Below are positions 3,580-57,272 of a stretch of 64,000 bases of DNA, piece by piece. The translations under genes and the position numbers were made by a program. The stretch's first letter is position 1, and the number at the start of each line of letters is the position of its first letter. The notes below the pieces were generated by a model. It searched no databases. It had not been told where the DNA came from and was given only the letters and a program-made list of their open reading frames with translations. Source of the stretch: a virus; the IMG/VR virus record IMGVR_UViG_3300027708_000022, positions 1 to 64,000 of that record. The stretch is one strand, 5' to 3'.

Positions 3580-3587
3580 TATAAATA
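3580..3587 (+). promoter_or_regulatory. T4-type late promoter for the GIY-YIG gene
   Basis: Exact TATAAATA about 60 nt upstream of ATG 3646. Confidence 0.75.
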
Positions 3588-3645
3588 AGTGTAGATCGCC
3601 GAGTTGCAGCTCGCACCTACTCTAATACGAAAGGACCGTATCAGT

Positions 3646-4146
3646 ATGACTATTTATTCTTCTAAAAACAGACCTAATCATTTTTATGTATATGCTTATC
3701 TAAGAGATAATAATTTACCTTATTATATAGGTAAAGGTTGCAGAGATAGAGCATGGAACAAAAATCATTCAATAAACATACCTAATGATAACACAAAAAT
3801 AATAATAATGCAAGCTAATTTAACGGAAATTGGAGCATTTGCCATAGAAAGAAGAATGATTCAATGGTATGGAAGAATTGATAATGGTACAGGTATACTT
3901 AGAAATTTAACTGATGGTGGTGATGGAACATCCGGTTATAAACAATCAGAAATACACATACAAAAACGAAAAAAAGCTAGACTTTTAAGTGGATATAATC
4001 ATACACCAGAATCTAAAAATAAATTATCAATTAATAAAACAGGTAAACTTAGACCAGATCATAGTCAAAAAATGAAACAGTATTGGGATAAAAAAACAAA
4101 AGAAGAAAAATTACAACATTCCAAAAAAACTTTTAATAAAAATTAA
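3646..4146 (+). mobile_element. Free-standing GIY-YIG-type homing endonuclease with NUMOD3-like DNA-binding motifs
   Basis: FYVYAYLR...YYIGKG...R, E..MIQWYGR, LRNLTDGGDG, HTPESKNKLS; opposite strand to neighbours; start set at ATG 3646 (MTIYS) rather than TTG 3604; stop overlaps the uvsW-C stop (TTAA 4143-4146). Confidence 0.85.
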
Positions 4147-4838
4147 ATTTTTAATTCTATATTATAAAACTTATAATTAAATTTTTCATCGTCATACATC
4201 TTTACTCTGCCAACGAAGTGTGTCAAGGTATAATTAACATGTTTGCCTATTCTAAAATCATCAGAGATATCATAAAGAACCGCTTCTTCTTTATTATCAC
4301 CTAATCTAAGTCCACGACCAATTGATTGTAGATTACGAATTTTTGATTTAGATGGTGATGCAAATATTACATTATGTAAATTACGTATATTAATACCAGT
4401 TGAGAATGTACCGTATGAAGCAACAATAATGGCATCTGTTTCACGTTCAGTTATATCTCTAATAGATTCTCTAACTTCGGTATCAGTACCACCATATACA
4501 AAAAATACTTTACGTTTACCTGCTTCTTCTTTTATAATATTATGTAGAACTTTACCATGTTTATCTACAAATTGAAATAGTATTAATGAATTACCTTTCA
4601 ACGACAAGGCAAGATTCTTTATAAATGCATTTCTTGCTGTGTTCAATACTATATATTCAATCTCTTCTTTGTAGTCCCACTTCTTAGATAACTTACAAAC
4701 TTCTTCTGGATATTTAAGTATTAAACATTTAATCTTAAATTTAGATAACTGTTTGTTATCCATTAATTCTTTTGTTGTTGTTGCTTTATATACTGGTCCA
4801 AATAAACCTTCTAATACTAATCTATGAACATTACTCAT
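4143..4838 (-). CDS. uvsW: UvsW helicase, C-terminal half (RecA2 domain)
   Basis: HRLVLEGLFGPV, VASYGTFSTGINI (motif V), LQSIGRGLR (motif VI). Confidence 0.93.
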   Translation of the reverse strand: MSNVHRLVLEGLFGPVYKATTTKELMDNKQLSKFKIKCLILKYPEEVCKLSKKWDYKEEIEYIVLNTARNAFIKNLALSLKGNSLILFQFVDKHGKVLHNIIKEEAGKRKVFFVYGGTDTEVRESIRDITERETDAIIVASYGTFSTGINIRNLHNVIFASPSKSKIRNLQSIGRGLRLGDNKEEAVLYDISDDFRIGKHVNYTLTHFVGRVKMYDDEKFNYKFYNIELKI

Positions 4839-5493
4839 TTTTTTCCATAATATTTTTTAACATTTGTTGTCGTCTTTTTTCTATCAATAATAAAGATTTT
4901 TCTTTACCTAAAAGTTCTTCGTATGTTTTGCCTCTTGACCAATCACCAATTTTTTTCTTAGATTCTTCTGTGTGTGGATATCTGCCACTATATGTTAATT
5001 GTTCAAAGGATATTTTTCCATCAATAAAAGAATACAACCTTCTTTTTGTTGTTTGTAATTTTTCCCAAGCTTCTTTTCTACTTTTATACTTTATTCCATT
5101 TATTTCTATTTCTTTAGCATTTGGATTATTTTCTGACATTCTTTTCATTTCTTTATCAGAAAGAGTTTTACCTTTATGGTGTAAACTTGCTGATAAAGAG
5201 TGTGCTTTTCTAGCTATTTCATAACCAATTGAAGTGTAGTACCTATTAGTAGAATCATGGTATCTCATCATGCCAAAAGCATGACCCATTTTAATTTTAT
5301 CTTTTCCTTTTGAGAATTTCCATAATAACCAATGACACACAAAGTGTTCTCTTGCTGTCAATTTTACTTTATTTTTTTTACCATTGTCACCACCTAAAGA
5401 TTTAGGTATTATATGGTGCTCCTCAAAATACTCGGACATTGTCCGAGTATTAGCTTTTTCTATTATAGAGTAATATATTTTTTGATAGTCCAT
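4831..5493 (-). mobile_element. HNH homing endonuclease inserted in and splitting uvsW
   Basis: EEHHIIPKSLGG.N...N.V.LTAREHFVCHWLL HNH motif; NUMOD-like HTEESKKKIG; lies between the two uvsW halves. Confidence 0.9.
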
Positions 5494-5498
5494 ATTTC

Positions 5499-5506
5499 TA
5501 TTTATG
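5499..5506 (-). promoter_or_regulatory. Late promoter variant (CATAAATA) for the HNH gene
   Basis: CATAAATA 5 nt before ATG 5493; the same variant precedes gp2 and gp8. Confidence 0.6.
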
Positions 5507-5528
5507 CGTTTTAGTTCCTTCTAATAGG

Positions 5529-6302
5529 TTAATTAGCTAATGTTCCGGTGCAACCTATTCTATATTTTGCATTAACCAATTGTGTCATAATTGTTGCTAG
5601 TGATTTGGCTTTGAATTGATGTGCCTCATCACCTATAACAAAATCAAATTGTTCAAAATATTCTGGTGGTTGTTTGTATATACTCTGCCAAGTCGATATT
5701 GATAGGAATTTATCTGAGTGTTTATCTCGACCAGCATATATTATATGACAGTTTGTTTTTGAGTCATAACCATAAGATTCAAAATCTGTGAACATCTGAT
5801 TACAAAGTGAAGTGGTTGGGACAATAAGTAACCCTTTTTTATAACCAGCATCTTGTATTCGTCTAAGTATCAAATAAATGATTAAAGATTTACCTGATGC
5901 AGTAGGTGAAAGAAGTAGAATTCTTTTATTACGGATTGCATGAACAAAAGAACTAACTTGATAATCACGAGGTTCAAATGGCAAACCAAGTGTCTGTATA
6001 AAGTCGTTGGCTTCTTTTAAGGAGTAATTGTCCGTGACTGTTATCTCAGAATCAATCTCAATTTTGTAATCTCTTTCTTTACAAAACTTTTCAATATAAG
6101 GTACCAAGCCATGGTATATTTCCATGGTTCTTAAATCAAGCAACCTTATCTTACCATCCCAATATCTTGCCTTAAATGCAGGAGTATATTGGTAGCCAGG
6201 AACATAGAAACAAAAATAATCGGAAAGTTCTTGTGCTACATTTCTTTCTGATACTACTCTGATAAAGGCTTCGTTAACCTTTTCTAATCTTAAATCATAC
6301 AC
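5529..6302 (-). CDS. uvsW: UvsW helicase, N-terminal half (RecA1 domain)
   Basis: WDGKIRL, PRDYQ, SPTASGKS (Walker A), DEAH (Walker B), ends GCTGTLAN (motif III). Confidence 0.93.
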   Translation of the reverse strand: MYDLRLEKVNEAFIRVVSERNVAQELSDYFCFYVPGYQYTPAFKARYWDGKIRLLDLRTMEIYHGLVPYIEKFCKERDYKIEIDSEITVTDNYSLKEANDFIQTLGLPFEPRDYQVSSFVHAIRNKRILLLSPTASGKSLIIYLILRRIQDAGYKKGLLIVPTTSLCNQMFTDFESYGYDSKTNCHIIYAGRDKHSDKFLSISTWQSIYKQPPEYFEQFDFVIGDEAHQFKAKSLATIMTQLVNAKYRIGCTGTLAN

Positions 6303-57264: not shown

Positions 57265-57272
57265 CATAAATA
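57265..57272 (+). promoter_or_regulatory. Late promoter variant for gp2
   Basis: CATAAATA 4 nt before ATG 57277. Confidence 0.6.

Follow-up and report, generated by a model that had tools for sequence, protein, structure and literature searches.

A copy of the interrupted target site in a split phage uvsW is most likely an off-switch for the inserted HNH endonuclease gene itself rather than a ribosome-hopping signal

Autorepression by a homing endonuclease has been demonstrated for a single enzyme, the intron-encoded I-TevI, and is only a proposal for two others. I-TevI, the modular GIY-YIG enzyme of the T4 td intron, uses an operator which is identical to its homing site at 15 of 20 positions, overlaps the endonuclease's own late promoter and offers no usable cleavage site at the right distance (PMC2988022). 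Free-standing enzymes are known as gene splitters. In Aeh1, the HNH gene mobE separates nrdA-a from nrdA-b without intron or intein, a late promoter is present and both halves carry cassette-derived ends (PMC2988022, PMC3045599). In T4, the mobA cassette splits gene 39-60 and carries recoded host flank. A short insert, the 50-nt bypass sequence in gene 60, lies some 20 nt away from the point of insertion, and the HNH gene can be lost while the split stays (bioRxiv 2022.08.31.505936).

The locus described here is a uvsW gene split by a free-standing HNH gene. As with I-TevI, a look-alike of the target overlaps the late promoter of the endonuclease, a usable cleavage site at the right distance is probably missing, and a structural model suggests, with middling Z scores, a similar C-terminal DNA-binding module. 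It differs from I-TevI in that the enzyme is a free-standing HNH protein which splits its host gene and whose binding to the look-alike is presumed, that the look-alike repeats target codons directly but out of frame, its His-Lys codons forming the promoter, and that the cassette has no RBS hairpin. With Aeh1 it shares a MobE-like HNH gene which divides a host gene into two ORFs without intron or intein, the late promoter and cassette-derived ends on both halves; here, however, the host gene is uvsW, the added ends are only 2 and 4 residues long, no translational hairpin is conserved and the complex of the halves is presumed. The mobA locus resembles it in the recoded host flank, in having a short insert some 20 nt away from where the cassette entered, and in the split that outlives the HNH gene, but the insert in uvsW is 16 nt long, ends the upstream protein and has no conserved matched codons, adjacent stop or stem-loop. 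Since nothing essential lies beyond this insert, the junction needs no hop. In the literature searched, no case of autorepression by a free-standing HNH enzyme was found, no uvsW split at this site, and no such split combined with an operator-like copy in a free-standing HNH cassette. The parts, genes-in-pieces and the I-TevI operator, are already known; against this literature, their union in a uvsW-splitting free-standing HNH cassette appears new.

The window, which is the whole 64,000-nt stretch of DNA analysed, is part of a 162-kb record of an uncultured T4-like phage seen in freshwater runs, none of the listed ones being an RNA run, and no close cultured phage was found for it. Genes on the minus strand follow the order gp23, gp3-like, uvsY, uvsW N-half, an HNH ORF of 220 aa and uvsW C-half. 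The features of the locus, all on the minus strand, are as follows.

5529..6302, minus strand: uvsW N-half, UvsW_N and RecA1 domain, 257 aa, ending GCTGTLAN-stop just past motif III
5538..5588, minus strand: uvsW coding flank of about 50 nt co-inherited with the cassette, identical in the window and in L111, the N-halves being otherwise different
5525..5537, minus strand: cassette-derived spacer of 13 nt, comprising the x and Asn codons of the tail, a stop at 5531-5529 and 4 free bases
5501..5524, minus strand: out-of-frame copy of the intact uvsW site (the remnant), L-E-G-T-K-T-H-K codons, constrained at codon positions 1-2; putative HNH binding site or operator
5499..5506, minus strand: T4-type late promoter CATAAATA, made of the remnant His-Lys codons, 5 nt ahead of the HNH ATG
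4831..5493, minus strand: MobE-like HNH endonuclease of 220 aa, with the HNH motif at its N-terminus and DNA-binding modules at its C-terminus
4143..4838, minus strand: uvsW C-half, RecA2 domain, 231 aa, beginning MSNV then HRLVLEG

The N-half aligns with residues 10-262 of T4 UvsW (1RIF, 2OCA) and the C-half with residues 273-501; the break therefore lies just past motif III, close to where the fragment with the structure 1RIF ends. Two intact uvsW ORFs flank the endonuclease ORF, the ATG of the C-half overlaps the HNH stop codon, and no more than 35 nt of non-coding DNA is left, with neither intron nor intein. At the level of reading frames, the gene is cut into two separately translated halves by a free-standing HNH cassette inside uvsW, at the conserved LDGTQTHK motif. 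Both halves stay open across the family, also after HNH loss, and by analogy with Aeh1 the two parts of UvsW would reassemble. In the UvsW sequence P0055 an intein lies inside the same LDGTQ motif, which marks LDGTQTHK as a site that mobile elements aim at. Intein (Hint) segments end the UvsW N-parts of P0041, P0055, P0057, P0058, P0060, P0067 and P0070.

Further observations were made around the split gene. A near-consensus sigma-70 promoter (11/12) lies ahead of uvsY at 6777-6749 (minus strand) of the window and hints at an early transcript that spans the HNH gene together with both halves of uvsW. On the opposite strand, an ORF which resembles GIY-YIG enzymes by motif only (3604-4146, plus strand) converges on the C-half, with TATAAATA at 3580. 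In L142 (2138-2698), a cassette-bearing uvsW has taken up another insertion, which contains an endonuclease-like ORF and interrupts the C-half some 130 residues in. The unsplit uvsW of L146 (minus strand, 1721 onward) reads TLDNMMVNQLVLEG at the site and could be a re-fused split allele or the result of simple divergence.

The HNH protein gave weak Pfam HNH and NUMOD3 matches and is about 33-35% identical to annotated T-even homing endonucleases including mobE; its relatives form about 20 clusters in one tight subfamily. A PDB sequence search gave no useful match. Residues 110-168 of the model matched I-HmuI (Z 5.8, rmsd 2.5, 55 residues aligned) and the DNA-binding domain of I-TevI (Z 4.5, rmsd 2.4, 42 aligned), both with middling scores. 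The remnant was considered as an N-terminal extension of the HNH protein, as which it is mis-called in P0121, P0125 and P0139, but this is not conserved; neither is an antisense ORF over the remnant, and a hairpin hiding the HNH start was discarded since no consensus structure exists across junctions. The first HNH codons contain a perfect 11-bp inverted repeat with a 3-nt loop (5427-5451), which is terminator-like on the plus strand and has one base changed in L081.

The junction was noticed because of a 16-nt element, CTAATTAACCTATTAG at 5536-5521 on the minus strand. A preliminary description of the locus had proposed that its removal joins TTA G to AA GGA and restores T-L-E-G-T-K-T-H-K-stop, and the bases are as described. 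The codons beyond the stop were also correctly taken for the old uvsW continuation: in the alignment with uninterrupted alleles, TLDGT(Q/N)TH(K/R)LVLEG stands here in 79 of the 79 intact relatives that span the site. The remnant agrees with the intact uvsW consensus at 19 of 24 nt and is the sole 16/16 match to the intact pattern of codon positions 1 and 2 within 64 kb. Its double use as the HNH late promoter was borne out as well, with CATAAATA at 5506-5499 preceding the HNH ATG by 5 nt, a spacing shared by four more near-leaderless late-promoter sites of the window. Late-promoter motifs 4-7 nt ahead of long ORFs were seen at 57265 (plus strand), 50580, 45605 and 22230 (all minus strand), and near-leaderless late messages seem common in this phage.

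Other features of the element turned out to belong to the lineage and not, as judged by comparison of relatives, to the family. The proposed hairpin has 5 of 5 pairs in the window lineage, but it is weak (-2.2 kcal/mol, z -0.9), no better than in shuffled sequence and without a consensus fold; the alternative pairing of the insert with upstream sequence reached z -1.15. The bounding ATTAG duplication exists in the window lineage but is broken in a 99.6% identical relative, position 5537 being T in L081, L111, X6 and X8. Similarly, the matched TTA codons are present in the window, but the take-off codon is CTA in X6 and Leu codons match in just 3 of 12 junctions. The idea that the spacer arose when upstream DNA was duplicated, in tandem or inverted, was rejected, as it agrees with the window sequence alone. 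An assembly artefact was rejected, as the junction recurs in L081, L111 and contigs of runs X2, X6 and X8, with no indel listed there.

In a protein search limited by length, 30 more N-halves of 54-93% identity came up, which stop 2-5 residues past TGTL; Asn stands two residues after Leu in 29 of the 31 split N-halves. No relative was found in the genome-contig collection. DNA was compared at 12 distinct junctions, and all of them display a common layout, namely a Leu codon, 13 nt, a Leu codon, the remnant, YATAAATA, 4-5 nt and ATG. The 13-nt spacer and the repeated Leu codon make up the 16-nt offset, which together with a uvsW-like remnant is present in 12/12. The distance from Leu to the promoter is always 32 nt, and the promoter is invariant at seven of eight bases, the first being C or T. 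Remnants resemble the intact site at the insertion point at 16-21 of 24 nt. Two sense codons separate Leu from the stop, except in L112 and L145, where there are five. The constant spacer length is weak evidence for function or protection, only 4 bases being free to vary the length.

That the remnant codons and the HNH gene move together in a single mobile cassette is supported by shared borders and by near-identical cassettes in differing uvsW backgrounds. The borders are sharp, with shared flank of 51-138 nt upstream and 8-12 nt downstream. Cassettes which differ at 0-5 of about 700 bases occupy clearly different uvsW backgrounds, and homing is therefore recent; to judge from these comparisons, it is apparently still under way among lake phages. 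Split alleles are scattered among intact ones: well-supported branches of the UvsW tree, which was built by a quick search and carries no bootstrap values, force at least 7 changes. The co-inherited flank at 5538..5588 shows 16 differences within 48 nt from the near intact allele L003 and may hold the nick site. Around 5580-5582 of the window, at codon -45 counted from the junction, 51 of 56 intact flanks have a Gly codon that 11 of 11 split flanks lack. This difference is possibly a nick-site or compensatory change, but one inherited with the cassette; such base differences between split and intact flanks were rejected as nick-site locators since they are not independent. At the far end of the same record, L195 (G000:C1:161952-162041), the sequence breaks off within an identical copy of the cassette 3' end joined to a different uvsW C-half (77% nt identity). 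The two copies part 9 nt inside the region of the His codon, and two phages having the cassette in common may have been joined in this record.

Selection on the remnant codons was supported by parsimony on the HNH tree: among 12 related sequences, 3 changes fell on second positions and 18 on third positions (p=0.0007). For remnant codons 1-6, changes per site at codon positions 1, 2 and 3 amount to 1.33, 0.5 and 3.0, and the four post-stop bases reach 3.75. Against neutral sites, the constraint of the remnant has a p of about 1e-6. These values largely refute the idea that the remnant is a neutral scar of the target duplication in which the promoter bases alone matter: duplication upon insertion would account for its origin and the L155 remnant is decayed, but the adjacent free bases and the third positions change at 6-7 times the rate of second positions, and this explanation is barely credible.

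The remnant accepts changes almost never made by intact UvsW, a stop included. It has Glu in 9 of 12 junctions, where intact alleles have Asp in 93 of 93; His is changed to Tyr in 3 of 12, toward TATAAATA, and this change improves the promoter. In L155 the remnant contains an in-frame stop and is decayed, the HNH gene being apparently intact. At L114 (3236-3320) and L151 (1717-1800), which represent one lineage, uvsW is divided at this very site, but the stop and start codons overlap and an endonuclease gene is missing; TLPN and the split are kept and the remnant is absent. Most simply, this lineage lost the HNH gene by deletion, and its sequences describe what would be a natural two-gene UvsW. 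The in-frame x-Asn-stop tail is, on this comparative evidence, what is selected. No recoding is needed, because the x-Asn tail makes up for the five lost residues DGTQT together with MSNV, the four residues that begin the C-half. The codon rhythm of the remnant fits translation and also a DNA site read by a wobble-ignoring endonuclease; tolerance of wobble changes is known from homing endonucleases and was shown for LAGLIDADG enzymes (PMC3159444).

The best explanation, to which a probability of roughly 0.6 is given, is that the spacer supplies the stop of the N-half and that the remnant is a binding site of the HNH enzyme over its own late promoter, analogous to the I-TevI operator. The junction would have three jobs. 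Two codons and a stop end the N-half as TL-x-N, as conservation shows. The His-Lys codons of the duplicated target would serve as late promoter for a near-leaderless HNH message. By parallel with I-TevI, the enzyme would bind the duplicated copy and in this way cover its own promoter. The copy would be conserved at codon positions 1-2 because the enzyme must read those positions in variable intact alleles and presumably binds the copy too. The 16-nt offset would shift the binding site away from the upstream flank and may stop self-nicking; by analogy with mobA, the odds that it protects in this manner are about even. The remnant overlaps the HNH late promoter in 12 of 12 junctions. Outside the family, the nearest HNH relative (L090, 1280-1350) is free-standing between an inverted uvsY and uvsW. 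Where no uvsW frame exists, a target-like copy (17/24, with one gap allowed) covers the TATAAATA of this gene; such a motif occurs in 0 of 39 control sites. This supports a DNA site tied to the HNH gene in a suggestive manner only, as it is one locus which requires a 1-nt gap and the target is absent from the contig; no further locus of this type was found. Against the operator, translation predicts codon-like constraint too, the remnant of L155 is decayed although its HNH gene is apparently intact, and the structural matches are middling.

The same constraint data would arise if the HNH enzyme bound the remnant as a decoy or nick-proof parking site and not as a transcriptional off-switch, the 16-nt offset being mainly protective. 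The mobA insert of 50 nt blocks nicking from 20 nt away, and the long co-inherited upstream flank fits a nick upstream of the remnant. The exact overlap with the late promoter, in 12/12 junctions and in L090, speaks against a decoy, and protection alone would favour decay of the copy over its conservation; this alternative is considered unlikely.

Another role in cis, such as an upstream promoter element, a ribosome-binding site, an RNA element or a site for another phage protein, would make the codon pattern a coincidence of origin. GAAGG(A/T) in the remnant indeed resembles a Shine-Dalgarno sequence and follows a pyrimidine run in most junctions, but it lies 22 nt from the ATG and the motif is absent at the other late promoters of the window. 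No conserved sigma-70 site, structure, Rfam match or antisense ORF was detected, and none of the listed roles predicts three-base periodicity, which makes such a role rather improbable. A group I intron or structured RNA was rejected (no room, no Rfam match, no consensus fold), as was a generic late-promoter upstream element, absent at other window promoters; GAAGG before the promoter of other HNH genes is owed to upstream gene ends.

Programmed recoding as in T4 gene 60 would add an LEGTKTHK tail to some N-halves through a 16-nt Leu hop, a +1 shift or a stop-hop over 4 nt that starts at AAU and lands on AAY. Both sides have a Leu codon in 12/12, the +1 frame is open through the remnant in 11/12, an AAY codon lies 4 nt beyond the last sense codon in 6/12, and the codon-like constraint equals that of a real exon at positions 2 and 3. 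The hop suggested in the preliminary description is nevertheless not supported, on several grounds. Same-tRNA Leu pairs exist in just 3/12; Leu is not beside the stop but two sense codons away (five in L112 and L145); the stop-adjacent codon has no landing codon in 6/12; and no consensus fold or structure was found over the junctions, while true gene-60 homologues always keep matched codons and the stem (bioRxiv 2022.08.31.505936). The L155 remnant has its stop, and the invariant Asp and His are not kept. The resumed frame has only 8 codons, is redundant with the start of the C-half, which already has H(K/R) (KTHK in L086), and is absent from L114 and L151, while the 0-frame Asn-stop tail is conserved and outlives HNH loss. 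A loose-matching hop or shift without fixed RNA structure, adding a conserved 8-residue tail to part of the N-halves, is thus left as a very improbable version; if true, it would represent a second, minimal family of endonuclease-linked bypass elements.

With this site, UvsW joins the genes-in-pieces, and codon-like conservation beside a homing endonuclease need not signal translation. If the operator is real, a stretch of 35 nt would end a host half-protein, build a promoter and provide an operator, all from one target duplication. The conserved copy predicts the bases read by the enzyme, and 12 variants, one of them decayed, together with one HNH-less lineage provide natural controls.
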